Source: an uncultured Acidobacteriota bacterium (GTDB taxonomy: Bacteria > Acidobacteriota > Blastocatellia > RBC074). From it: 64,000 bases of DNA. This document shows positions 47,926 through 61,964 of the stretch, in pieces; position 1 is the first letter of the stretch, and the number at the start of each line of letters is the position of its first letter. The notes beneath the pieces are model-generated. The model worked only from the letters and a program-made list of their open reading frames with translations. It was not told the origin of the DNA and made no database searches. The DNA is taken from assembly GCA_963796275.1 (NCBI GenBank), contig CAWCKY010000006.1:2870899-2934898 (forward strand), in the 5' to 3' direction. The translations under genes and the position numbers were made by a program.

Positions 47926-50326
47926 GTGCGACACGAAGTCGCAATTTCGACTGTGATCCTTGAATTTATGAGATCACCTTGCGTTCTGCCGCAAGTACCC
48001 TACCGGGACATGCGTCGCCGGCAACGGCGGGGTGTGAAGCTCTCGGAACAATGTAACCCCAATCGTGAGAGATTGGCAGCCGAATCGCGAGAGGAAGCTG
48101 TGACTGCCAGCCGGAAGGCGGTCGGGGGCTAGGGTTCGACGGTATGGTCAACAAATGTGAATCGCCGCAAGCGTCGTGAGATCCGACAAGCCAAACCGGC
48201 TGAGAGGCTTGAACCAAAAGGTAAGTAGCCAGGGTGGAGGCTCCAAAGTCCGCCACCGCAGACGTTGGGCTACCGGCGTATAGGCGAGACCTAACCCGTC
48301 AGGTCGCAATTGCGGAACGTGGTAAACCCGTACTTCTCCCGGATGGGAAAGCGAGCCGTGAGGCGAGCCGATAGGAGTGCGGGCAAAGGAGGATGGAAAA
48401 AGCGAAAGCCGCCTTGTAATGAGACGGATAGGAGTTGCGCCACTCGACAAGATCACTCCACGCGAAAGCGGGCAGACTTCCATCTGGTCTTTCCCGGCGA
48501 GAAAACTGAGCTACCGACACCGGAGACAAAGCAGATGGCAGCAGTGGAGACACAGGCTGGTGCGGTCCCCAACGGGCAGATCGACTGGACGACCATCAGC
48601 TGGCGAACAGTCAATCAGAACGTGCGTCGGCTCCAGTCACGTATCGTCAAGGCAACACAGGAGGGCAGATGGAACAAGGTCAGAGCCCTGCAACGTCTGC
48701 TCACCCACTCGTTCAGCGCCCGATGTCTGGCCGTTAAACGAGTGACTACGAACCAAGGAAAAAAGACTCCCGGTGTAGACGGAGTGATCTGGGACACACC
48801 GGAGAAAAAAGCAACAGCTGTAGACGAATTGAAGGTGAGGGGCTACCACCCCCAACCACTCAAGCGTGTCTACATTCCCAAAAGTGACGGACGACAGCGC
48901 GGCCTGAGTATTCCCGTCATGAACGATCGAGCCCGGCAAGCATTACACTTACTGGCGCTCGATCCGATTGCGGAGACAAAGGCTGACCCGAACTCTTATG
49001 GCTTTCGGATAGGTCGGGCACCGGTGGACGCCACCGACCATGCCTTCCGGATGCTGTGCCGAAAAGGTTCGGCCAAGTGGATACTCAAATGCGATATCCG
49101 ATCCTGCTTCGACAGGATCAGCCATCAGTGGCTCTTGGACCACGTTCCGATGGACAAGCAGACCCTGAAGAAATGGCTGAAAGCAGGATTTATCGAGCAA
49201 GGTGAGTGGCATGAAACCGAAGCCGGGACGCCACAGGGCGGGACGATTTCGCCAGTGCTGATGAACTGGACGCTCGATGGCCTGGAACGGGTGTTGAGCA
49301 AGAACCCAAGGTTCAAGAAGAACACACGCCCAGGCAGACAGGCCAAAGTCAATTTGGTGAGATTCGCCGATGACGTCATCGTGACCGGCAGTTCGGAAGA
49401 ACTACTGGAGAACGAGGTCATGCCGCTGATTGAAGAGTTTCTCGAAATCAGGGGACTGGAACTCTCACCGGAGAAGACAAAGATCGTACATATCTCTGAG
49501 GGGGTTGACTTCCTCGGTCAGCACATCCGGGAATATGGTCAGGGGAAGACACTGATCCATCCGTCTCAACAGAGCATCAACAGCCTGCTGAAGCGAATCC
49601 GCGAAGTGATCAAAGCCAACCGCCACGTCGCGCCGGGGATTTTGATCTGGATGCTCAACCCGATCCTGAGGGGCTGGGCAAACTACCACCGGCACGCATC
49701 GAGTAAACAGACTTTTCAGAAGATAGACTGTGCGACCTTCAAATCGCTGTGGAAGTGGTGTCGCCGCCGTCATCCGCGTAAATCACGCCAATGGATCAAG
49801 GAGAAATATTTCCAGACCATCGGGGATCGCCACTGGGTCTTTAGCGGGGAAATGCGACTGCGCGGAAATACAAGGCAAATCAGGCTCTACAGCCTCGCCT
49901 ACACGCCCATTCGCAGGCACACCAAAATCAAAGGTGAAGCCAATCCCTATGATCCACACTGGGAAAGGTATTTTGAGCAGCGCCTCGATGTTAAGACAGA
50001 GGGGTCGCTCAGAGGGCTCAAAATGCTGCTGTTTCTGTGGAGAGAGCAAGAGGGGAAATGTCCGGTCTGCCAGGAGAGAATCACCAAGCTGACGGGATGG
50101 CAAACGCATCACCTCATTTGGAAATCTCACGGTGGAACAGACGGCGCAAGTAATCTGGTCTTGCTACACCCTGGATGCCATCAAGAAGTCCATAGCCAAA
50201 AGTTAGTGGTGGTGAAACCGCGTCCTGAAAAGGGCGTTGGAAAGGCTTGAGCTGATTGCCGGGATAACCGGCACGATCAGTTCTGAGGGGAGGGCGCGCG
50301 GCGGCAACGTCGCCCCCTTACCCGAC
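47926..50326 (+). mobile_element. group II intron (IIB/chloroplast-like class likely), apparently full length
   Basis: 5' GTGCG at 47926; domain V GAGCTGATTGCCGG-GATAA-CCGGCACGATCAGTTC at 50249-50283; domain VI ending CCCGAC at 50326; encloses the RT ORF. Confidence 0.88.
48535..50250 (+). CDS. ltrA: group II intron reverse transcriptase/maturase with HNH endonuclease
   Basis: TPGVDG, RVYIPK, SYGFR, GTPQGGTISP, RFADD, DFLG, maturase LNPILRGWANY, HNH (CPVC...HH...NLVLLHPGCH). Confidence 0.95.
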   Translation: MAAVETQAGAVPNGQIDWTTISWRTVNQNVRRLQSRIVKATQEGRWNKVRALQRLLTHSFSARCLAVKRVTTNQGKKTPGVDGVIWDTPEKKATAVDELKVRGYHPQPLKRVYIPKSDGRQRGLSIPVMNDRARQALHLLALDPIAETKADPNSYGFRIGRAPVDATDHAFRMLCRKGSAKWILKCDIRSCFDRISHQWLLDHVPMDKQTLKKWLKAGFIEQGEWHETEAGTPQGGTISPVLMNWTLDGLERVLSKNPRFKKNTRPGRQAKVNLVRFADDVIVTGSSEELLENEVMPLIEEFLEIRGLELSPEKTKIVHISEGVDFLGQHIREYGQGKTLIHPSQQSINSLLKRIREVIKANRHVAPGILIWMLNPILRGWANYHRHASSKQTFQKIDCATFKSLWKWCRRRHPRKSRQWIKEKYFQTIGDRHWVFSGEMRLRGNTRQIRLYSLAYTPIRRHTKIKGEANPYDPHWERYFEQRLDVKTEGSLRGLKMLLFLWREQEGKCPVCQERITKLTGWQTHHLIWKSHGGTDGASNLVLLHPGCHQEVHSQKLVVVKPRPEKGVGKA

Positions 50327-50504: not shown

Positions 50505-51329
50505 TTATTGCCTGCGGAGGTATCCCATATCAATTAGAATCTGTTTGGTCAGGTTGATGCGCCGGTCGCGAATGGCGGCGGAGCTCTCTCCTTCAAGGTT
50601 GGTTGCAAAGAAGTAGACATTATCTTTGGTCTCCAGATATCCCACGAACCAGCCGAGGTATCGGCCCTCGGCCAGCGGCCCGGCGCCGGTCTTGGCGCTC
50701 AGCTTATAGTCGGCGGTCTTTTCCAGTGTGAGTATATCTTTCACGATTTCGACAGTTCGTTTTGACACAGGTAGTTGTTCACGATAAAACCTCTTCAGGA
50801 ATTCGATCTGTTCGTCGGCGGAGATGCTCAGGCTGCCCCGCAGCCAGAAGGCCTCGAACAAGCGGGGGCTTTGCCAGCCACTAGAGATGTCCTGATTTCC
50901 ATAACCGAATCCCGTGACAAGCCGGCGCATGCGCGGCTCGTCAATGCGCCGCGCCAATTCGCGATAATACCAGAGGACGGAATATTTGATCGCCGAGCGG
51001 AGCGTATGGTCGCGATTCCATTCGGGCAGGGAGTTGTCTTGCGCCGGATACTTCTTGCTATCCCATGGAATCACGAACTCCGCATCCTTGATGACGCCGG
51101 TCTCTAGACCAATCAGCGAGGTGGGAATCTTGAAGGTCGAAAAAGGTGTAAATCGCTCCCGGCAGCGCTGCTCGTTATAACGCAGATAGCGGTCGTTCTT
51201 CAGGTCATACAGAACAAACGCGCCTTCAGTGTTCTGGAAATATTTGCTCAGGTCCTGCGCCCTGATCCCGACGGAAACGGAAATGCACAACAGTGGCGCC
51301 AAGAGACGGAGTAATCTTGTCTTTCGCAT
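50505..51329 (-). CDS. blaOXA: class D (OXA-type) beta-lactamase
   Basis: Signal peptide; STFK, S-V-L at the SxV position, YGN, FWL, KTG, GWFVG. Confidence 0.88.
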   Translation of the reverse strand: MRKTRLLRLLAPLLCISVSVGIRAQDLSKYFQNTEGAFVLYDLKNDRYLRYNEQRCRERFTPFSTFKIPTSLIGLETGVIKDAEFVIPWDSKKYPAQDNSLPEWNRDHTLRSAIKYSVLWYYRELARRIDEPRMRRLVTGFGYGNQDISSGWQSPRLFEAFWLRGSLSISADEQIEFLKRFYREQLPVSKRTVEIVKDILTLEKTADYKLSAKTGAGPLAEGRYLGWFVGYLETKDNVYFFATNLEGESSAAIRDRRINLTKQILIDMGYLRRQ

Positions 51330-52180: not shown

Positions 52181-52210
52181 TTGACTTTCTCCAAAGCAAG
52201 TTGCTACGAT
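52181..52210 (+). promoter_or_regulatory. sigma70-type promoter of RAPP leader gene 1
   Basis: TTGACT-N18-TACGAT with an extended -10 TG; ATG 12 nt downstream, so nearly leaderless. Confidence 0.5.
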
Positions 52211-52222
52211 GACCGCCGTCGA

Positions 52223-52660
52223 ATGATCGTCAAGCTAAAAATCTGGCTCAGGTTACGCGCGGCGGTTGCGGTGCTGGCGCTGGCACTAGGATGGATCTCT
52301 ACCCCGCTTTCGCTGGCCGCGATAGAGCCGGATGTTTGCGAAATGGAATGCTGCATTGCGGAGGGCCATTGTTGCTGTGCGGTGCGGCTCCCTTATGTCA
52401 AAGGCAATGAGCCGAAGCCGGGAGATGTCTCACTCACTATTGAAACGGCGTTGACCGACCCATGTCCGGCCGGTTGTGCCGCTTCCGGAGTTTCCGTAAA
52501 AAACAAGCTACTTCGAGCGGCGCATGCGCAAGCGCCGCTCGTAACGCTCGCATCCATCCCACCGGAGCTCTACCAGAGCCCATTTCTGCTTGATCATCAA
52601 TTTACCGCGCAACCATCCTCTCCTCGCGCTCCTCCCGCCTGTGACGGGCATATCGCCTGA
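52223..52660 (+). CDS. secreted Cys-rich small protein with C-terminal RAPP motif (CruR/CutF/DUF2946-like leader), copy 1
   Basis: Signal peptide; CEMECCIAEGHCCC; CPAGC; PRAPP near the C-terminus; paralog at 53092. Confidence 0.78.
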   Translation: MIVKLKIWLRLRAAVAVLALALGWISTPLSLAAIEPDVCEMECCIAEGHCCCAVRLPYVKGNEPKPGDVSLTIETALTDPCPAGCAASGVSVKNKLLRAAHAQAPLVTLASIPPELYQSPFLLDHQFTAQPSSPRAPPACDGHIA

Positions 52661-52839
52661 AATAATCATTACCATTCAACCTCATATTGATTGACGTCGA
52701 GATGAGCCTGCCGACTTGTCGGAGACCGCGCTATTCGACGTTGGTCGCTCGATCGCTATTTCATTCGACGTCGGTCGAATGCTGGCGCCCGTTCTTTCGG
52801 CGTTCGCCGTGTCTAAAGCGATGGGAGGTTGAATTCGAT

Positions 52840-53077
52840 TGCGTGGGGCGGAACACGCTGATCTGGACCTTGCATTAACAAAACGTTCCGGCTGCGTGAG
52901 CGTCTCAACCTGCAATTCCGCACCGGGGTGTTCAATTCGCTCAATCATCCGAACCTCTCGATTCCCAGCCAGCGCACGGTCTTTTCGCGCTCAGGCGAGG
53001 TCGGGAGCACGGGGTTGATCACCACGACGAGAACATCGTCGAGGCAACTCCAGTTCGGACTGAAATTGACCTTCTGA
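52840..53077 (+). pseudogene. C-terminal remnant of an Oar-like TonB-dependent receptor
   Basis: Frameshifted GRNTLI...DLALTKR...RLRERLNLQFRTGVFNSLNHPN...TSSRQLQFGLKLTF-stop, the typical acidobacterial TBDR tail. Confidence 0.7.
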
Positions 53078-53091
53078 TATTCGGATAAAGA

Positions 53092-53535
53092 ATGATCCCG
53101 CATCGATCACAAACAGGGTTTCGGCTGCGAGCTGCATTGGTAATGCTCCTGCTGCTGTTCGGCGCGACCGCGCCTTCGGCTAGGATATGGCTGCCGGAGC
53201 CTGTTACCTGCGGGATGGTTTGCTGTGAAGAGAGCGGCGTCTGCCATTGCCGGCATCATCATGCTGGCGAATATGAGGTGACCGGCGAGGCTGCGCGCAC
53301 CGGAACTCATGCCGTCAAACTGAGTGAGGTCAGCATCGGCCGTTTCTGCCCGGCGCAATGCGCGCAGCTTCCGGCCGGTTATCAAAAGCATTCGATCACC
53401 AGGACGCAGCCACTTCGTTACGCCTTCGCCGCCGGCCCTGCTCGCCGGTCATTCAATCACACTCCGTTTTTAGCGCGCGATACCTTGATGGTCGAAGCGC
53501 ATGCTCCGCGCGCCCCTCCGTCCATTCTCCTCTGA
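53092..53535 (+). CDS. secreted Cys/His-rich small protein with C-terminal RAPP motif, copy 2
   Basis: Signal peptide; CGMVCCEESGVCHCRHHH; CPAQC; PRAPP. Confidence 0.78.
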   Translation: MIPHRSQTGFRLRAALVMLLLLFGATAPSARIWLPEPVTCGMVCCEESGVCHCRHHHAGEYEVTGEAARTGTHAVKLSEVSIGRFCPAQCAQLPAGYQKHSITRTQPLRYAFAAGPARRSFNHTPFLARDTLMVEAHAPRAPPSILL

Positions 53536-53857
53536 TCAATTCATCCGGTTCCCGTAATGCTGAGCCAGTGATAACGCCGGTCTCGTGTGCGGTGACGCGG
53601 GCAATTGTACTTAAGGGTCTGCAAGTCGCGTCGTGTTTGCTCACGTCGCCAGTCCGTTTTGCCGCCATGCAATCACCGCTTCACTTACCGGTTCTGCATT
53701 GCTCGGCATGAGGGTAGTTCATACCTGGAACCTTCTTCGTTTGACATCAGCTTCGAGTGCCCGCGCTGAAAGTTCAAGCTTGTGGTTCAAGACAAATTAC
53801 GGAGGAGTCATCAAATGAAAAACAGCGATACAGAGGCCTGCATGCACATGCCGGCTG

Positions 53858-54135
53858 AGAGCCAACGCATTGATTGCCAGGCTCTTCGGATTCGGAACCT
53901 CCTTCATCAAAAGGACGCTCAGGATGGATCGGGGCGAAGAGAACGCTGACCCGAGAGACGATGCCACGCTCTCTCTTGATGAGGAGCAACTGGAATCGCT
54001 TCAAGCGGCGGTCGAGGTTTGCCCCGACGCGACGCTCGACGAATTGCAGAGACTCGTCGCCGACCAGTGCAAAGCCACAGTCAGCTAGATAAGCATCTAT
54101 CGCGCCTTGAAGCAGCTGAACCTGCCTCTCGCGAA
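53858..54135 (+). mobile_element. IS630-family transposase N-terminal remnant
   Basis: IARLFGFGTSFIKR HTH and PDATLDEL...TVS*ISIYRALKQL with an internal stop; no DDE domain. Confidence 0.6.
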
Positions 54136-54272
54136 GAGTGGAGAGAACATCGATCAATTCCATTCACTCGGATAAGAGGCATATCCAGCTCGAGGCGAAG
54201 ATTGTTTTTGAACATGAGAGCCTGAATCGAGAACTGCGGACAGGCTCTACAAATTAGGAAAAAGGAGTTGCA

Positions 54273-55490
54273 ATGAATCTTCTGATTATCTCTCTATCTC
54301 TGATCTTCATTTCGAATTTTGCGCACATCGCAACTGCCCAGAACGGGAAGACGTCAGGATTGACGCTGGCGATGAAAGTGGTGAGCAATCCAGCCGCCTC
54401 AGGCAGCTCGCAGTCGCGTCTGACCGTCACCCCAGATGGGCGCGCGCTGCTCTCGTGGCTCGAACCAGCTGGTGCGAAGGGCAGGGTGTTGAAGTTCGCC
54501 GTCCAGCAGAAGAGCGGCTGGTCGGCGCCGCGAACTATCGCCAGCGGCCGGCCCTTCGTAACCCACGATTCGGTGCAGCCGGCGGTGACGCTGCTCGGGG
54601 AAGGCTCGCTCATCGCCTACTGGATCGAGAGCCGCCAGTTGCGGGTCAGCAATCAGGCGAAGAAGACCTGGGACCCCGAGGATATCTACTTTAGCAGCTC
54701 GCGCGACGGCGGCAGAAAGTGGACCCCGCCAGCCGTGTTGCACCGCGACATGAGCGATTGCGAGCACAGCTTCCTGTCGATCGCTCCTCTCGCGGACGAT
54801 CAGGTCGCCGCCATCTGGCTTGATGGGCGCGATAAGACCTACGCCGTGCGCCATACCATCACGAAAACCGCCGGCGGACCAGGCGAAGAGACCGTGCTCG
54901 ACACCGACGTCTGCACCTGCTGCCCGACGGCGATGGCCCGGACGGGCGAGGGGTTGATCGTCGCTTACCGTGATCACACGGGCGAGACGCGCGACATCTC
55001 GTATGTGCGATTCGCGCAAGGGCGATGGCATGAACCTCAGCCGCTCCACCCCGACGGCTGGAAGATCGATGGCTGCCCGGTGAACGGCGTCGACCTGGAC
55101 GCTGACGGGCAAAGCGTCGTCGCCGCCTGGTTTACCGCTGCCAACGATCAAACCCAGGTCAAAGTCTCTTTCTCGAACGACGCCGGTGAGAGTTTCAGCA
55201 CGCCCGTTCGTGTAGATGAAGGACGCCCCGCGGGGCGCGCCGCTGTCGCTTCAGCCCCGGATGGTGGCGCGTTTATCGCCTGGATTGAAAAAGGCGAGAA
55301 GCATTCGCTATTGCTCGCCCGGTATGCCGGTGCTGACGGCAGACTCGGGCCTCCGATCCTGATCACGCAAAGCACAAAATCTTTCCCGCGCCTCGCGCGA
55401 TTGGGCGATCAGGCGATGCTTACGTGGACGGCTGCAGGCTCGACGCGCACGGCGTTTCTCTCGGTTCAAGCTCATTCGGCGGCAAAGTGA
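54273..55490 (+). CDS. BNR/Asp-box (sialidase-like) exported beta-propeller with Cys motifs
   Basis: Signal peptide; Asp boxes SRDGGRKW and SNDAGESF; VCTCCPT, YRD, WKIDGCPVNG; RBS AAAGGAG. Confidence 0.8.
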   Translation: MNLLIISLSLIFISNFAHIATAQNGKTSGLTLAMKVVSNPAASGSSQSRLTVTPDGRALLSWLEPAGAKGRVLKFAVQQKSGWSAPRTIASGRPFVTHDSVQPAVTLLGEGSLIAYWIESRQLRVSNQAKKTWDPEDIYFSSSRDGGRKWTPPAVLHRDMSDCEHSFLSIAPLADDQVAAIWLDGRDKTYAVRHTITKTAGGPGEETVLDTDVCTCCPTAMARTGEGLIVAYRDHTGETRDISYVRFAQGRWHEPQPLHPDGWKIDGCPVNGVDLDADGQSVVAAWFTAANDQTQVKVSFSNDAGESFSTPVRVDEGRPAGRAAVASAPDGGAFIAWIEKGEKHSLLLARYAGADGRLGPPILITQSTKSFPRLARLGDQAMLTWTAAGSTRTAFLSVQAHSAAK

Positions 55491-55548: not shown

Positions 55549-57816
55549 ATGAAGAGGTACACCCCCATATCGGTTTTGCTCATTCTTATACTCAACCTGG
55601 CATCTGTTTCGGCGCAGGAAAGCGTAAATATCTCCGGCGTAGTCACCGACCCGAATGGCGCGGTCGTCGCGGGCGCGCAGGTCACCGCCGTCAACACGCT
55701 CATCAGAGAGCAGAGGCGCGCCACGACGGACGCGCAAGGTCATTACGCCATAGACAACTTAGCGCCGGGCGCGTACACCGTCACGGTGTCGGCTAAGGGG
55801 TTCGCCACCGCGACGAGGGAGGTGCGCCTCGGCGCCGCGAACGGCGCGGTTGATTTCCGACTTTCGATTAGCGCCGTCGGCGAGACCGTCACGGTGGAGG
55901 CTGAGACGGCGCGCGTTGAGCTGGAGCGCACGCCGGGCGGGGTCGCCGTCGTCGCCGGGCGCGACCTCTCTCAGACTCGCGCGTACAACCTGCGCGATGT
56001 GTTCGAGTATACGCCGGGTGTGCTGGCGCAATCGCGCTTCGGTTCCGACGAGGTGCAGATCTCAATCCGCGGCTCCGGACTCAGGAACAACTATCACGGG
56101 CGCGGCGTCAACATCCTGATTAACGGCATCCCGCATATGGATGCAGACGGTTTTAGCGATTTCGAGGTTTTGGACTTTCTCGCCGCGCAGCGCGTCGAAG
56201 TCTGGAAGGGGGCGAACGCCCTGCGCTACGGCGGCAACACTTCGGGCGGCGCAATCAACCTCGTGACGGAGACGGGCAAGACCGCCCCGCCCTTTGAGCT
56301 CCGCGTGCAGGGCGGCTCGTTCGGTTCGTTTGAAGGGCACGTGGCGACGGGCGGCGAGCGCGGTCGTTTCAACTACTTCCTGAGCTTCACGGACGTAGAA
56401 CTGGATGGCTACCGCGAGCATAGCCAGCAGGGGCGGCAACGCCTCTACGGCAATTTCAACTTCGCCCTCGACGACAGGACGGACTTCAACCTCGACATCG
56501 TGTACGCCAACATCGGGGAGAGATATCCAGGCCCGCTGACGCGCGAGGAATTCTTCCGCGACCCGCGCGCCGCTGTCCCCATCTACGTGCAGCAGGATCA
56601 GGGTCGCTTCGTTGATTATACGCGCCTTGGATTGGGGATGCGCCGCCGCTTCTACAGCGGGCACGAGTTCTCTTTCAACGTCTTCGGGCAGTACCGCAAC
56701 CTCGAGCACCCGATCTTCAACGTGCTCGATCAGGACACGCGCACCTTCGGCGGCGAGTTCCGTTACGGCTACACGGGCGAGCGCAACCGTTTGTTCATCG
56801 GCTTCTCGCCGCAGGTGACTCCGAACGGCGGGCGCCGCTTTGAAAATATCAACGGACAGAGCGGGGCGCAGACCGCCCACTTCGACTCGCTCGCCACGAA
56901 CTACGGCATCTACATTGAAAATCAGTTCGACATCCACCCGTCGTTCACGCTCGTCACGGGGGCGCGCGCTGATTGGGCAGTGCGACGCTTCACCGACTTC
57001 TTCCTCGCCAACGGCGACCAGTCCGACCGTCGGACGTTCAAAGCCTTCTCGCCCAAACTGGGATTCGTCTGGCGAGCGCGCGACCAGATGCAGGTCTTCG
57101 CCAACGTGAGCCGCTCTTACGAGCCGCCGGTCTTGAACATTGAATTGATCAGCTTCGGCGCGCCCGGCTTTCTGCCGCTGGGTGCTCAGGACAGCTGGCA
57201 GACTGAGGTCGGCACGCGCGGGCGCGCAGGGCAAAGGCTCAACTACGAGCTGACGTTCTTCAATCTCGAAATCAACGACGAAATCATCAACACCAACGTC
57301 CTCCCGTTTCCCGGCGCGCCCTTCACCATTCCGAGCTTCCGCAGCGCGCCCAACACGCGCCACACTGGGGTTGAACTCGCGCTCGACGCCACACTCCGGA
57401 AAGGGCTTTTCACCGGCAGCGACGCGCTCTCAGCGCGTACGGCTTACACCTTCTCGCGCTTCCGCTACGTTGATGACCCGACGTACTTCAATAACTACCT
57501 GCCGGGCGCGCCGCGCCATCTCGTCCGCTCCGAACTTCGTTACGACCACCCGCGCGGTTTCTGGATAGCGCCGAACGTTGACTGGTCGCCCGCGACTTAT
57601 TTCATGGACAGCGCGAACACGGCGCGCAACGACAAGTACGCGGTGCTGAACTGTAGGGCGGGCTTCGACCGGCAACGGTGGGGCATCTTCTTCGCGGCGA
57701 ATAATCTGACCGACCGGCTCTACTCGGCGTCGGTTCAAGTTGACAGCGCCGCGGGTACCTTCTTCGAGCCGGCGAATGGGCGCTCGATATTCGGCGGGAT
57801 AAGCGTGCGGTTTTGA
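55549..57816 (+). CDS. TonB-dependent receptor with N-terminal carboxypeptidase-regulatory-like domain
   Basis: Signal peptide; GVVTDPNGAVVAGA; plug SIRGSG...RVEVWKGANALRYG...GGAIN; NNLTDRLY; C-terminal Phe. Confidence 0.92.
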   Translation: MKRYTPISVLLILILNLASVSAQESVNISGVVTDPNGAVVAGAQVTAVNTLIREQRRATTDAQGHYAIDNLAPGAYTVTVSAKGFATATREVRLGAANGAVDFRLSISAVGETVTVEAETARVELERTPGGVAVVAGRDLSQTRAYNLRDVFEYTPGVLAQSRFGSDEVQISIRGSGLRNNYHGRGVNILINGIPHMDADGFSDFEVLDFLAAQRVEVWKGANALRYGGNTSGGAINLVTETGKTAPPFELRVQGGSFGSFEGHVATGGERGRFNYFLSFTDVELDGYREHSQQGRQRLYGNFNFALDDRTDFNLDIVYANIGERYPGPLTREEFFRDPRAAVPIYVQQDQGRFVDYTRLGLGMRRRFYSGHEFSFNVFGQYRNLEHPIFNVLDQDTRTFGGEFRYGYTGERNRLFIGFSPQVTPNGGRRFENINGQSGAQTAHFDSLATNYGIYIENQFDIHPSFTLVTGARADWAVRRFTDFFLANGDQSDRRTFKAFSPKLGFVWRARDQMQVFANVSRSYEPPVLNIELISFGAPGFLPLGAQDSWQTEVGTRGRAGQRLNYELTFFNLEINDEIINTNVLPFPGAPFTIPSFRSAPNTRHTGVELALDATLRKGLFTGSDALSARTAYTFSRFRYVDDPTYFNNYLPGAPRHLVRSELRYDHPRGFWIAPNVDWSPATYFMDSANTARNDKYAVLNCRAGFDRQRWGIFFAANNLTDRLYSASVQVDSAAGTFFEPANGRSIFGGISVRF

Positions 57817-57841: not shown

Positions 57842-58486
57842 GTGAATCGCAAAAGCGAAATAACGAGGGAAAGGAAGCGACGCAAAATGGCCGGCGCCGC
57901 GATCGCTCTTCTTCTTGTGACCGGATTCGCGCTGGCGGCCTCGGTGCGGATGAACGCTGCGCCGATCCGGCTGCTACAGAAGGAGAAGCGTTACGAACTG
58001 AGAGGCGTCGTCAAGTCCGTGGACAAGCCGAACCGCCGGGCCACGATCAAACACGAAAAGGTCGGCGATTACATGGATGCGATGACGATGCCGTTTCTGA
58101 TCAAGGACGAGAAGGCTTTGAATACGATGCGACCGGGCGATCAGATCAAGGCGACGCTGGTTGTGACCAACGATGGCGGGCTATGGCTGGAAAACGTTTC
58201 CATCACATCGAAAGGAAATTCCAGCCTGGAAGAAAAGAACGCGCAATCTGAAGCTGCCATCCCACTCTTGGGACTTGATCCGGTCGCGCTCATCGAGGGC
58301 AGGGAAGTTAGGGGCAAGGAGGAATTCAGCCCCAGGTCGAAGAACTCGTTAATGGCGCACATCGTTCTTCGACCGCCAGCATCGCTCGTGAAGAACCTGA
58401 TGGAGCAGGCGGTGCTGATCGCAGATGAAGACAGCGGCGAAGCCTGGTTGGAAGGCTTTCGTCCGCGGCGAAAACGGAAGCGATGA
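57842..58486 (+). CDS. CusF-like copper-binding protein with a truncated YHS-like extension
   Basis: RYELRGVVKSVD...ATIKHEKVGDYMDAMTMPF (H/M/M Cu(I) site); then LGLDPVALIEGREVRG and an unrelated tail. Confidence 0.7.
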   Translation: MNRKSEITRERKRRKMAGAAIALLLVTGFALAASVRMNAAPIRLLQKEKRYELRGVVKSVDKPNRRATIKHEKVGDYMDAMTMPFLIKDEKALNTMRPGDQIKATLVVTNDGGLWLENVSITSKGNSSLEEKNAQSEAAIPLLGLDPVALIEGREVRGKEEFSPRSKNSLMAHIVLRPPASLVKNLMEQAVLIADEDSGEAWLEGFRPRRKRKR

Positions 58487-58740: not shown

Positions 58741-59020
58741 ATGCGACTCTGTTTTGGTTTGCTCGTAATCGTCGGTTTGCTTATCGGTATATGCTTAAAC
58801 GCACATGCCCAGACAAGCATCAACGGTAGCCTACGCGGGCGCATCATCGATATTAATGGCGCGGCCGTGGCAAGCGCCACAGTCACTCTCACCAATGCCG
58901 GCACCAACATTCGCAGGCTACCATCACGGGCGAAGACGGTTCGTATACTTTTGCACGAATCGTTCCTGGCCGATACTCGATTGTGGCTGAAAAGTCGGGC
59001 TTCAAGCAGGTGCGGCGCGG
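58741..59020 (+). pseudogene. N-terminal remnant of a TonB-dependent receptor (frameshifted and truncated)
   Basis: RBS AGGAGG; signal peptide; GSLRGRIIDINGAAVASATVTLTN, then in another frame TITGEDGSYTFARIVPGRYSIVAEKSGFK. Confidence 0.7.
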
Positions 59021-59150
59021 CAATAAACTGTCGGCGACGGTCCGCGTGCAGCCCGAAGGCAGCTATGTGGTTGGGATTGTCGCGCATACCCCTGCTCAGC
59101 AGCCTCGCTGCTTCGTCAAGCTCAGAGCGGCGCAATTCGCGAATCTCCAA
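59020..59150 (-). pseudogene. N-terminal remnant of a GNAT-like acetyltransferase
   Basis: RBS GGAGG plus TTG; EIRELRRSELDEAARLLSRGMRDNP...AFG; similarity ends where it meets the TBDR remnant. Confidence 0.5.
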
Positions 59151-59162
59151 GCTTCCCTCCGA

Positions 59163-60509
59163 TCAGCGCCCTGTCGCTTCCACACTCAGGTTGCTCTCCG
59201 TATTTTCCACCACGTGACCGCCGTGCGTATAGCGGACGCATAGGATGCGGTGGCCTTCCATGCTTTCAACGGTAAAAATCGCGCCTTTATACTCGACCAC
59301 TTCGCCCTGTCCTACGAGACGCCCTGCCTGAGCATGTAGAAAACCGGCGATTGTCATGTATTTCTCGCTCTCAGGCAGGCCAAGACCTAGTCGGCGGTTG
59401 GCGTCACGCACTGCAAGCATGCCGTCGAGCAGGTATCCTCCCTTAATCTCCTGAATCTGCGACGCGACTTCCTCGTCGTACTCGTCGCTGATCTCGCCGA
59501 CGATCTCTTCGAGGAGGTCTTCGAGCGTGACGATGCCTTCCAACCCGCCGTGCTCATCTATCACAAAGGCAAGATGGCTGCGCGCCGCCTGCATCTGTTT
59601 GAGCGCCGTTCCGAGCTTGGACGTGATCAGAATGAAGAAAGGCGGATGAGCCAGTTCTTCCAACTTGAAATCAGCTTCGGGTCTACCTTCCAGGTAAGGC
59701 TCCAGGTCTCGTCTGACGAGCACGCCGACGATCTTGTCCAGATTTTCGCGGTATACCGGCAGGCGCGAGTAGCCATGTGTACGGAAAGCCCGTTTCGCTT
59801 CTTCCAGAGTGGCGGTGACGGGCAAGGCGGCCACGTCGAAACGCGGGATCATTGCTTCGCGCACCTCGGCATCGGAGAAGTCAAAGACACGATTGATAAG
59901 CGTCTGCTCCTCTTCCCCAAGAGTGCCGCTTTTCCTCGACACTTCGATCAGGTGCCTCAACTCCTCCTCCGTGTAAACGGAGGCATGCTCACTCGAAGGG
60001 CGCAGCCCGAACAGACGCACGGCGCGGGTACCCGCCCAATCGAGTAGGCGGATCGGCCAGTAGAAGACCTTATAGAACAACTGCATCGGCAGCGCGATAG
60101 CGAGCGCGACCTTTTCAGCGCGCTCAAGCGCGAGCGTTTTGGGAGCCAGTTCGCCGAGCACGATGTGCAGAAAAGTAATCACGATGAAAGCGATGGTGAG
60201 GGCGATAGTGTGCCGGACGGCATCCGAAACGCGCCCTTCGAGCGGCGCTTCCAGCAGATGCGCGAAGACCGGCTCGCCGATCCAGCCCAAGGCGAGCGAG
60301 GCCATCGTGATGCCGAGTTGTGTGGCGGAAATGTAGGCGTTGAGGTTGTCTATCAATTCGAGCAGTATCCTCGCCCGGCGGTTCCCACTATTGGCCAGCA
60401 TCATTATGCGCGAGCGACGGACGCTGACGAGCGCGAACTCCGAAGCCACGAAGAACCCGTTCGCTAGAACTAGCAGGAAGACAAGGAGAATATAAAGAGT
60501 GGTAAGCAT
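59163..60509 (-). CDS. CNNM/CorC/TlyC hemolysin-family protein (DUF21-CBS-CorC)
   Basis: NGFFVASEFALV, QLGIT, GELAPK, MIPR, YSRLPV, DEHGGLEGIVTLEDLLEEIVGEI. Confidence 0.92.
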   Translation of the reverse strand: MLTTLYILLVFLLVLANGFFVASEFALVSVRRSRIMMLANSGNRRARILLELIDNLNAYISATQLGITMASLALGWIGEPVFAHLLEAPLEGRVSDAVRHTIALTIAFIVITFLHIVLGELAPKTLALERAEKVALAIALPMQLFYKVFYWPIRLLDWAGTRAVRLFGLRPSSEHASVYTEEELRHLIEVSRKSGTLGEEEQTLINRVFDFSDAEVREAMIPRFDVAALPVTATLEEAKRAFRTHGYSRLPVYRENLDKIVGVLVRRDLEPYLEGRPEADFKLEELAHPPFFILITSKLGTALKQMQAARSHLAFVIDEHGGLEGIVTLEDLLEEIVGEISDEYDEEVASQIQEIKGGYLLDGMLAVRDANRRLGLGLPESEKYMTIAGFLHAQAGRLVGQGEVVEYKGAIFTVESMEGHRILCVRYTHGGHVVENTESNLSVEATGR

Positions 60510-60647
60510 TCGGTTCCACGAATGAATGCTTTGCGCGCCGCGCGGTAACTCTAGACCGCTTCGGGCAAAGACATCGTTTCCGGTTTCAAAGGGAAGTTTG
60601 CGCGATAACAGAATATCAATCAACCTCTTTACGTCGCTGACCAGCGC

Positions 60648-61964
60648 TTAGACTGAAGATGGATTGTGAGGGAACTGAGTTACCATAACCTTGTCCACAC
60701 GCCTGCGATCCATATCCATGATTTCAAAGCGCCAGCCGCCGACATCCACGCGGTCGGCGACCGCCGGGACACGACCGAGTCGCATCATCAGAAACCCGCC
60801 CAGCGTTTGAAAATCGCCTTCCTCCTCACCCGGCAGTTGTTTGAGTTGTAAGGTCTGTTTGAGTTGGTTGATGGACAGCGCCCCATCCAGCAGGAAAGAG
60901 CCGTCCTCACGCCGGACGACGGATGGTTCCTCCTGTTCATCCATCGAAGGAATATCGCCGACCAGGGCGTCGAGAATATCATTGACAGTCACTAGCCCTT
61001 CGACGCCGCCATGCTCGTCAATCACAATCGCCATATGACGCCGGGATGATTTGAACATCTCGATGGCTTTGAAGGCGGGCAGCGTGTCTGGGAAATAGAG
61101 CGCAGGGATCATCGCGGCTTTCAGATCAAATGGTTGATTGGTGAACTCACGGGCGAGTAAATCTTTCGCCCGCACGACGCCGACGACGTTGTCCGCCGCG
61201 CCCTGAATGACCGGGTAGCGCGAGAGGCGATTGCTGCTAATAACCTCTTTGATGACTTCCGGCGGATCGTCGAGATCGAGAAAGACGACGTCGGGGCGTG
61301 GCACCATCAATTCGTTGACTGTGCGGTCGCCCAGATGGAAGGTGCGCTCGATCAGGTCGCGCTCCGCTTCCTGAAAGACTCCCGCTCTAATGCCCTGTTC
61401 GATCAGGATTTTGATTTCATCTTCAGTCACCGGCGGGTCGCTCGATTCGCGCAGACCAAAAAGTCGCAGCAATCCGTTGGTCGAGCCTTCCAGCAGCCTC
61501 ACCAGCGGCGCTGCGAGCGCTGATAGTCTCTTCATCGGCGCGGCCACCGCCGCAGCGATCTTTTCGGGACTGTGCAGCGCCAGCCGCTTCGGAATTAACT
61601 CGCCGATGACCAGAGAGAAGTAGGTGATGACCAGTACGACCAGTCCGAAGCTGATGTTATCAGCATAAGGCTCGATGGCGGGAAATCTTTTGAGCGGCGG
61701 CGCTAGCTTCTCGGCAATGGTTGCGCCGCCGAAAGCTCCCGCCAGAATGCCGACCAGCGTAATGCCGATTTGAACCGTAGAGAGAAAGGAGCCGGGGTTG
61801 GCAGCGAGTTCAAGGGCGGCTCGCGCCCCTTTATCGCCGTCAGCGGCCCGCTTATGCAGGCGCGCCTGGCGCGCGGAAACGACCGCCATTTCAGACATTG
61901 AAAAAAGGCCGTTAGCGATCAGCAAGACGATAATGAAGATGATTTCAAACGTAATGTCGCCCAT
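60648..61964 (-). CDS. CNNM/CorC/TlyC hemolysin-family protein
   Basis: NGLFSMSEMAVVS, STVQIGIT, GELIPKR, MVPR, SRYPV, DEHGGVEG, FQTLGG. Confidence 0.92.
   Translation of the reverse strand: MGDITFEIIFIIVLLIANGLFSMSEMAVVSARQARLHKRAADGDKGARAALELAANPGSFLSTVQIGITLVGILAGAFGGATIAEKLAPPLKRFPAIEPYADNISFGLVVLVITYFSLVIGELIPKRLALHSPEKIAAAVAAPMKRLSALAAPLVRLLEGSTNGLLRLFGLRESSDPPVTEDEIKILIEQGIRAGVFQEAERDLIERTFHLGDRTVNELMVPRPDVVFLDLDDPPEVIKEVISSNRLSRYPVIQGAADNVVGVVRAKDLLAREFTNQPFDLKAAMIPALYFPDTLPAFKAIEMFKSSRRHMAIVIDEHGGVEGLVTVNDILDALVGDIPSMDEQEEPSVVRREDGSFLLDGALSINQLKQTLQLKQLPGEEEGDFQTLGGFLMMRLGRVPAVADRVDVGGWRFEIMDMDRRRVDKVMVTQFPHNPSSV

Follow-up and report, generated by a model that had tools for sequence, protein, structure and literature searches.

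The window analysed here is a stretch of 64,000 nucleotides (nt) from an uncultured acidobacterium of the class Blastocatellia (contig CAWCKY010000006.1). Its forward strand carries two small open reading frames (ORFs), leader 1 and leader 2 (copies 1 and 2), which have an Arg-Ala-Pro-Pro (RAPP) motif close to their ends and are found in the neighbourhood of genes for TonB-dependent receptors (TBDRs). The initial annotation of this DNA had proposed that both are secreted, Cys-rich, ribosome-arresting leader peptides that sense a metal, and translation bears out the two ORFs as it described them, in position, length, shared motifs and RAPP coordinates (table 1). Leader 1 consists of a basic and hydrophobic export-type segment, a cluster of six Cys residues, CPAGC, a spacer of 49 residues and SSPRAPP; leader 2 consists of an export-type segment, a five-Cys cluster with HHH, CPAQC, a spacer of 49 residues and APRAPP. 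The distance from the last Cys of CPAxC to the Arg of RAPP is, as the annotation had also noticed, exactly 49 residues in both copies, which are 27% identical to each other (E 2e-10). The export-type N-terminus is predicted to comprise a basic start, a hydrophobic core (hydropathy up to 2.6) and a helix at residues 2-32. The PP lies seven residues (leader 1) and four residues (leader 2) from the C-terminal end, and the next genes begin 431 nt past leader 1 and 737 nt past leader 2.

Table 1. Features of the leader region, in coordinates of the window
Feature	Position	Strand	Remarks
Sigma-70-type promoter-like site, TTGACT-18-TACGAT	52181..52210	+	12 nt before leader 1 start; consensus match only
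Leader 1 (ORF1, copy 1)	52223..52660	+	145 aa; head-of-cluster subfamily
Leader 1 N-terminal cluster codons, C39-E-M-E-C43-C44-x5-C50-C51-C52	52337..52378	+	
Leader 1 CPAGC codons (C81, C85)	52463..52477	+	56 and 52 residues to presumed P-site Pro
C>G stretch over leader 1 end, candidate Rho loading site	52531..52686	+	GC skew -0.36 to -0.46 in 78-nt windows
Leader 1 RAPP codons, presumed stall site	52625..52636	+	stalling presumed from CruR, ApdA and ApdP
Predicted long hairpin after unstructured post-stop segment, candidate RNA polymerase pause	52688..52747	+	consensus fold of 7 close relatives
Stub, last ~70 codons of Oar-type TBDR	52862..53077	+	PF25183, E 2.6e-11; deletion junction near 52840
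Leader 2 (ORF2, copy 2)	53092..53535	+	147 aa; internal-position subfamily
Second C>G stretch, around leader 2 RAPP	~53350-53583	+	
Leader 2 RAPP codons	53509..53520	+	within second C>G stretch
Decayed helix-turn-helix-like ORF	53870..54172	+	in-frame TAG at 54086-54088; between leader 2 and BNR gene
Exported BNR-repeat protein (BNR_2)	54273..55490	+	PF13088, E 1e-7
TonB-dependent receptor	55549..57816	+	nearest solved structures PqqU/YncD, far below PqqU family cut-off
CusF-like protein (CusF_Ec)	57842..58486	+	PF11604, E 4e-14; C-terminal part unrelated or degenerate

Two further paralogs are present in the same genome, at 290633-291070 of contig C6 (67% identical to copy 1) and at 543009-543440 of contig C4 (about 27% identical to either copy), and both share the 49-residue spacer of the window copies. 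Thirty frames of at least 100 amino acids (aa) in the genome have R[AGS]PP at the end, and a CxxxC placed 53 and 49 residues (±1) ahead is found in only four of them, the window copies and these two paralogs; therefore, the combination of motifs does not arise by chance. In nine close relatives of copy 1 the ratio of nonsynonymous to synonymous substitution rates (dN/dS) is 0.29 overall, 0.04 in the cluster, 0.53 in the spacer, 0.00 in SSPRAPP and 0.39 in the export-type segment. These low values, especially those of the cluster and SSPRAPP, indicate that the leaders are real genes under selection at the protein level. The AlphaFold model of the leader (pTM 0.40) is unstructured past the cluster, and a wide fold search with it was uninformative (best Z 2.9, signal helix only). 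The receptor gene that follows the closest paralog of copy 1 is split into two ORFs (L001:8623-11699, about 292.6-295.7 kb of contig C6), by either a real frameshift or an assembly error.

A conserved family of leaders

The leaders belong to a family that is real, well conserved and unannotated. A first search, with a profile of four sequences that included the spacer, gave 200 clusters at 50% identity, and the best 150 of these 200 were examined. RxPP is located near the end of 130 of the 150 representatives listed (RAPP in 104, RGPP in 19, RSPP in five and RPPP in two); the other 20 are mostly fragments, and a few are degenerate. In 102 aligned members the eight Cys, one Met, the Arg and both Pro are each 90-100% conserved (the Met 96%), and the sequence of the spacer is free (mean frequency of the top residue 0.25). 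The family consensus is a signal segment, C-x-M-x-CC-x5-C-x-C, CxxxC, 49 residues and RAPP; a CxC subgroup (52/50) exists beside the CxxxC majority. PFL, which the initial annotation had listed among the shared motifs, does stand in the same register in both window copies, 15 residues before the Arg, but PF[LIV] occurs in the last 40 aa of only 9 of the 150 representatives and was dropped as a family motif.

Because the first profile contained the spacer, a second search was made with the N-terminal half only (48 positions). It matched 96 of 251 genomes of the class Blastocatellia, with an uneven spread over taxonomic families (42 of 78, 44 of 53, 1 of 78 and 0 of 14 genomes). In a held-out set of 74 regions outside the training of the profile it gave 77 matches, or 75 after removal of two training sequences. 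Sixty-nine of these 75 loci end in RxPP (RAPP 54, RGPP nine, RSPP six); of the six exceptions, two are cut off by a contig end, three are broken and one is fused to a BNR gene. The second Cys of CxxxC lies 48-50 residues from the Arg in 67 of the 69, and the spacer is 48-50 residues long in 115 of 120 representatives and 45-47 in four. Six Cys are present in the cluster of 62 of 68 held-out leaders, in addition to the two of CxxxC. A conserved acidobacterial family of RAPP leaders with a fixed spacer and a much larger Cys cluster, as the annotation had suggested, was thus recovered in loci outside the training set, and in the profile search, the spacer table and the table of downstream genes that it had put forward as a check, RAPP, the spacing and the position ahead of transporters were all found to be conserved.

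Scans of the 102 members with Pfam and NCBIfam assigned no family. DUF6769, offered as an identity by the ESM Atlas (row 0.92, 105 shared features), was treated as a chance match; otherwise the Atlas matches are Acidobacteriota clusters without names. Named homologs come from Blastocatellia or Acidobacteria, plus one record titled Heliobacteriaceae. Outside the class there are weak matches in five sampled genomes elsewhere in the phylum, four of which define a sister type, LPxCCRxxGxHxC ... CP ... KRGPP (L071-L074, from another acidobacterial class). The sister type and the family can be aligned over their full length (probability 95%). Sister leaders likewise precede receptor-like ORFs and are tandem in L073; the three that were scanned have no Pfam or NCBIfam family.

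Genes downstream of the leaders

The position upstream of TonB-dependent receptors, also part of the original claim, is general in the family. With genes labelled according to their similarity to neighbours that had been checked against Pfam, the first label after the leader is a TBDR in 58 of 68 held-out loci (Oar-type PF25183 in 42, classical in 16), and a TBDR occurs within 6.5 kb downstream in 65 of the 68. Other products that recur are a BNR-repeat protein, a CusF-like protein, PepSY_TM, MbnP, MbnH, cytochrome oxidase subunits, DUF2911, DUF4198 and DJ-1/PfpI, and the matches to MbnP and MbnH are above the NCBIfam cut-offs in the loci tested. Genes for CusF, MbnP, MbnH, COX or HMBD are found downstream of 21 of 82 leaders (27 of 82 including PepSY_TM) versus 5 of 222 TBDR-like segments of the genome of the window, and two of these five are themselves headed by leaders. 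There is overlap between these neighbours and the ones published for cruR. No sec, yidC, DsbA, thioredoxin, cysteine or sulfur gene occurs among 83 scanned neighbours. Rfam detects no riboswitch in the window between 44000 and 64000 and two cobalamin riboswitches in 14 loci, both before later genes, and a metal riboswitch as the regulator was rejected on this result.

Several variants of the downstream arrangement were seen. RSPP-type leaders head clusters of DUF4394, TBDR, cytochrome oxidase subunit II and subunit I (L065, L188, L191, L192). One subgroup of BNR proteins has a His-rich mature tip, QTHQHG or QHHGHG (L041, L044, L045, L049, L061, L087), and in L193 the N-terminal half of a leader is fused directly to a BNR gene of this kind. 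In L038/L084:2058-3211 a leader has lost both the second Cys of CxxxC and its receptor, and a cobalamin riboswitch and a gene for ribonucleotide reductase come next.

History of the window locus

The TBDR remnant that the annotation had placed after copy 1 is a C-terminal stub of an Oar-type receptor, 84% identical to an intact relative over 68 aa. The sequence downstream of copy 1 aligns with intact relatives to about 52840 and then switches to the last 70 codons of the receptor, which indicates that a BNR gene and most of the receptor were lost by deletion. Leader 2 starts 14 nt past the stop codon of the stub. An identical contig in one public run and an approximately 90% identical contig in another span the deletion junction; in a third contig the end of leader 1 is joined to the start of leader 2 and the stub is gone, and in a fourth the stub was lost differently, all of these being single short contigs at an 80% threshold. 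Scans of the metagenome collection found nothing, and the tandem was traced through the short contigs and protein P0083, which reads through the same junction and whose leader part is 75.5% identical to copy 2. Since the relatives' contigs and P0083 carry the same junction, the tandem pair was inherited. Both leaders are kept intact while the stub erodes.

Copy 2 precedes the BNR, TBDR and CusF-like genes in the order that the annotation gave, with the correction that the 737-nt gap between them holds a decayed helix-turn-helix-like ORF. This ORF is 57% identical to an open ORF after the leader in L089, is skipped in a relative's contig, and presumably resembles the N-termini of IS630 transposases. 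Small helix-turn-helix ORFs recur in clusters headed by leaders (window 53870-54172, L089:5515-5883, L051:8684-9178, L046:11656-12273) and are of two unrelated types, the one of the window being broken and single-copy in its genome; possibly they are domesticated transposase fragments that act as regulators. A frameshifted 5′ stub of a further Oar-type TBDR follows the CusF-like gene (58741-59024, forward strand), and the cluster is decaying at both ends. Farther out lie a group II intron (47977-50250, forward strand; Rfam D1-D4-7 match at 47977-48129, ORF for reverse transcriptase, maturase and HNH at 48310-50250), an exported 274-aa protein with a penicillin-binding/transpeptidase domain (50505-51329, reverse strand, PF00905), which by its motifs we take to resemble a class D beta-lactamase or BlaR sensor domain, and two tandem CNNM-CBS-CorC genes (59163-61964, reverse strand).

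Serial leaders and their predicted promoters

The 118 distinct intact leaders of all fetched loci comprise 95 cluster heads, 13 internal leaders (those that follow a cluster gene within 260 nt), three that come after another leader and seven without upstream sequence. In L082/L089 the order is leader, TBDR, leader, TBDR, BNR, leader on one 11-kb contig, and in L087 it is leader, TBDR, BNR, leader with a gap of 3 nt. A promoter signature was found in 29 of the 95 heads, none of the 13 internal leaders and one of the three tandem second copies, against a background of 61 in 3728 long ORFs. The scan that located the site of leader 1 gave two promoter-like sites versus 0.8 expected in shuffles, and the site of leader 1 leaves only a few nucleotides for a 5′ untranslated region. 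Intrinsic terminators show no excess between 52000 and 54400 (one found versus 2.4 expected). The -10 box is located merely 7-15 nt before the start codon in 32 of the 118 leaders, of the cluster-heading type and including the window (52181-52225); the messenger RNA of such leaders would therefore be nearly leaderless, with no room for a Shine-Dalgarno sequence.

In a FastTree tree copy 2 falls in a clade of 28 (support 0.975) that holds 11 of 14 leaders scored as internal, and copy 1 in a clade of 81 that holds the other three. The two subfamilies thus appear to share out positions, one heading the cluster with its own promoter and the other mostly re-inserted between downstream genes. We infer that serial leaders are co-transcribed, in which case one transcript would pass two or three gates.

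Proposed mechanism

With moderate confidence we favour the reading that both ORFs encode leader peptides that act in cis in the manner of CruR of Bordetella pertussis. The ribosome would stall at RAPP, where the P site would hold the first Pro, as the toeprints of CruR suggest. The distance to the peptidyl-transferase centre would then be 52-56 residues for C81 and C85 and 85-98 for the six-Cys cluster, a geometry that would place all of them outside the tunnel. Under shortage of the metal, which is most likely Cu(I), a C-rich, G-poor stretch would be covered by the stalled ribosome, Rho could not load, and the receptor, BNR and copper-delivery genes would be transcribed. When the metal is plentiful, the thiols would be bound and CxxxC could fold against the cluster near the tunnel exit or the translocon; the resulting pull would free the stall, the ribosome would leave, and Rho would terminate transcription in the long intergenic region. 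Eight thiols together with the conserved Met would permit cooperative binding of several ions. In the window the deletion has left the two presumed gates directly in series ahead of the BNR, TBDR and CusF genes. The identity of the metal, the compartment of sensing and the role of the Cys cluster are inferred, and the annotation's idea that the metal acts during secretion is so far unsupported, CruR working without a signal peptide and CutF requiring one.

Several properties of the transcript are consistent with this scheme. The C-G skew of the 30 non-coding nt after the stop codon is +0.225 (n=50) and +0.195 (n=118), versus -0.09 for 3,728 long ORFs. Around the Arg codon, RNA pairing is predicted to fall at -15 and at +15 to +45 nt and to increase at +75 to +120 nt. 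The intergenic region after the leader has a median length of 147 nt (starts estimated from alignments), being shorter than 100 nt in 10 of 78 cases and never shorter than 60. The genome has rho and efp genes. The polarity in which the stall means on and the metal means off is favoured, by indirect evidence, because the targets are importers and because of the C>G stretch, the long intergenic regions, the enrichment of copper-related neighbours and rho. As regards the spacer, a deviation of two residues or more is seen in 5 of 120 representatives versus 29 of 120 for the linker between cluster and CxxxC, although the relatives counted are not independent; a spacer of fixed length but free sequence is sensible only on the ribosome.

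The serial order leads to a wider proposal, which we put forward tentatively and regard as possible rather than probable: that the metal-uptake clusters of Blastocatellia are chains of stalling gates on one transcript, a stepwise attenuator with multiple inputs in which each metallothionein-like eight-Cys sensor has its own threshold or metal. If the proposal is true, each cluster is headed by a leader with a promoter and contains one or two more leaders, which are internal and belong to another subfamily; the first receptor would be switched on at mild shortage, and the second receptor, the chaperones and MbnPH only when every gate is stalled. The register, 4-5 residues beyond that of CruR, would then be a ruler retuned to the size of a folding domain or to sensing beyond the translocon.

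Several points weigh against these interpretations. Conservation of length is not confined to the spacer, for the linker too is mostly constant and measures 40 residues in 75 of the 120, and a few homologs lack the second Cys of CxxxC. The richness in C around RAPP is partly forced by Ser, Pro, Arg and Ala codons; the leaders compared for skew are related to each other, and their background comes from one genome. The hairpin is almost without covariation, with a two-sided change in 1 of 30 pairs in the seven close relatives. As for copper, neither a copper marker nor PepSY_TM lies within 6.5 kb in 55 of the 82 loci, and because the markers were chosen from the neighbourhoods of leaders, the comparison is biased towards enrichment. 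The commonest target, the Oar-type PF25183 receptor, is without known cargo, the receptor of the window is closest to an importer of pyrroloquinoline quinone (PQQ), and the copper receptor model is the best match for only one tested receptor, below its cut-off (219 versus 472 bits). As for the serial gates, where 135-200 nt lie upstream of an internal leader the pattern may have missed a promoter, and one tandem second copy has its own promoter signature.

Alternative explanations

The alternative that survives best, although it is unlikely, is a monitor of thiol redox state or of secretion, in which the eight Cys would form disulfides while crossing SecY and oxidative folding, not metal, would pull the stall free. 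Most members have an even number of Cys, with two in CxxxC and, in 62 of 68, six in the cluster; purifying selection acts on the export-type segment (dN/dS 0.39), and some leaders are followed by DJ-1/PfpI genes. The 49-residue spacer would set CxxxC about where the chain exits SecY, if the reasoning put forward for CutF is applied, and RAPP leaders precede DsbA and thioredoxin genes in other bacteria (PMC12992588). On the other hand, DsbA, thioredoxin, Sec and YidC genes are absent from the 83 scanned neighbours of this family, the Met is 96% conserved, and copper-related neighbours are enriched. Adjacent pairs such as CC and CCC are, moreover, poor disulfide formers.

Quite unlikely is a polarity of the CutF type, by which periplasmic copper would strengthen the stall, the ribosome would open a stem-loop over the next ribosome-binding site (RBS), and the metal would switch the genes on. 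The leaders satisfy the rules of length, CxxxC and C-terminal PP for CutF-like proteins, CxxxC is the motif nearest to the stall, as in CutF, and a hairpin follows the stop codon. That hairpin, about 30-90 nt past the stop codon, nevertheless misses the next start because the intergenic regions are long; the targets are importers, not detoxifying enzymes, and the C>G stretch suits control by Rho.

It is improbable that the product itself is functional, as a secreted metallothionein-like metal store or chaperone or as the precursor of a modified peptide, with RAPP incidental. Only SSPRAPP is more constrained than the Cys cluster with its dN/dS of 0.04, leader 1 is intact though its own receptor was deleted, and MbnH-type enzymes adjoin some loci. 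Yet RAPP is kept (dN = 0) despite being strongly avoided in proteomes, those of Acidobacteriota included (bias 0.12; PMC12992588), the spacer is fixed in length and free in sequence, the model is unstructured beyond the cluster, and the one PF05114 modifying enzyme of the genome lies more than 140 kb from the nearest leader. A classical cysteine attenuator, in which the CC and CCC codons would report the supply of Cys-tRNA, is highly improbable, for despite the runs of Cys codons within the leader ORF the cluster lies about 250 nt before RAPP, ahead of the C>G stretch, no cysteine or sulfur gene is found among the 83 neighbours, and the spacer and RAPP would be left unexplained.

Comparison with known arrest peptides

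CutF of Rhodobacter capsulatus is a leader on which copper stalls the ribosome and for which export is needed; it has a distance of 45 residues and a proline-rich end, and an oxidase is controlled through a stem-loop over the RBS, with copper as the on signal (10.1101/2022.11.11.516240 = PMC9973294; 10.1101/2025.02.05.636593). A rule-based set of CutF-like proteins in the same work has 5,334 members in 29 clusters, most with intergenic regions shorter than 100 nt. Like that set, both window leaders are shorter than 150 aa, contain CxxxC and a PP in the last 15 residues and have a same-strand neighbour within 1000 nt, and like CutF they have an N-terminus that looks Sec-type. Unlike CutF, the family has a spacer of 49 residues and a median intergenic length of 147 nt without a short stem-loop covering the RBS.

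RAPP leaders before TBDRs, the TonB-related class of upstream ORFs, have been reported as universal in Gram-negative bacteria, and RGPP and RSPP as arrest-supporting or partly permissive (PMC12992588). The leaders described here probably fall within this class, given that reported universality. As the class is described in the text available, families, Cys clusters, spacers and serial order are not resolved. ApdA and ApdP share the C-terminal RAPP or RGPP in a small secretory protein (PMC12992588; PMC10951233, PMC10987492) but monitor protein localisation, whereas sec and yidC are absent from the 83 scanned neighbours of this family.

CruR (Bp2923; Pfam DUF2946/PF11162) is the closest parallel. 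It has a fixed spacer from CxxC to RAPP that was shown and tested by mutation, its copper control being strongly reduced when the spacer is lengthened by five residues; it works without a signal peptide, is released by copper, and has its Rho site in a C>G bubble that runs from the 3′ part of the gene into a 162-nt intergenic region (PMC9426467). It stalls with the third and fourth residues of RAPP in the P and A sites (PMC12992588). The present leaders resemble CruR: they too are about 145 aa long, begin with what looks like an export segment, keep a Cys motif at a set distance from the RAPP near the C-terminus, show a C>G stretch, and precede a long intergenic region (median 147 versus 162 nt) and genes of the TBDR, PepSY_TM and MbnPH types. 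They are unlike it in that CxxxC is placed at 53/49 and CruR's CxxC at 48/45, a register shift of +4/+5; in six additional conserved Cys where CruR has one dispensable Cys; and in being often internal or tandem, whereas cruR homologs are reported to be systematically first in the operon.

DUF2946 does not match the family, as the initial annotation had left to be tested: unlike the controls, the family gives no match to the profile hidden Markov model (HMM) above its cut-off, mostly has CxxxC in place of CxxC, and has a spacer outside the 45 ± 2 range in nearly all representatives. PF11162 matches neither leader and no protein of the genome above its cut-off, and 4 of 102 members score at E 0.19 or worse, from which a remote kinship may exist; five DUF2946 leaders used as a control pass the cut-off, and spacers in DUF2946 controls are 45 or 43-44. 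The alignment by hhalign gave probabilities of 29% and 13%, with only the signal segment or RAPP aligned, and rests on 4 and 9 sequences; with five proteins from the DUF2946 homolog search this profile-profile test is weak and the Pfam HMM test stronger. Of 201 genomes of the phylum, 3-4 contain true DUF2946 leaders, and one of them, G041, has both types. The canonical DUF2946 leaders of L076-L079 are rich in His and have CxxC 43-44 residues ahead of RAPP or RGPP, and each of them precedes a receptor-like ORF.

The kind of leader is therefore already known, since the leaders fit both the CutF-like rules and the RAPP class that precedes TBDRs, and the fixed spacer and the RAPP leaders before TBDRs, presented as new in the annotation, had been published (PMC9426467, PMC12992588). 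For the six-Cys cluster, the shifted register and the serial gates we could not find a published description. The family itself and serial RAPP leaders likewise have no description that was found in the openly readable literature. The string 'Acidobacteri' has no occurrence in the main texts of the CruR, CutF, CrtA and CrpH papers and three CruR supplements, and in the readable text of PMC12992588 it stands only in contexts of motif frequency; acidobacterial members may be listed in the remaining supplements of the latter and the CutF work.

The hosts are abundant, little-studied soil bacteria, and the family flags which of some 200 receptor genes per genome are likely to serve metal uptake. 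Its most distinctive traits, both absent from the initial annotation, are the +4/+5 register shift and the serial leaders in mid-cluster; the latter, if co-transcribed, represent a layout of arrest peptides for which no description was found. The broader question is how a metal alters a RAPP stall, given that CruR is released by copper and CutF is stalled by it. Beside these two the family represents a third solution found in nature: its sensor is larger, its register extends 4-5 residues further, a change that CruR does not tolerate, and true DUF2946 leaders are present in the same class. Swaps of domains and spacers between the two acidobacterial types of leader would directly test the pulling-force model.

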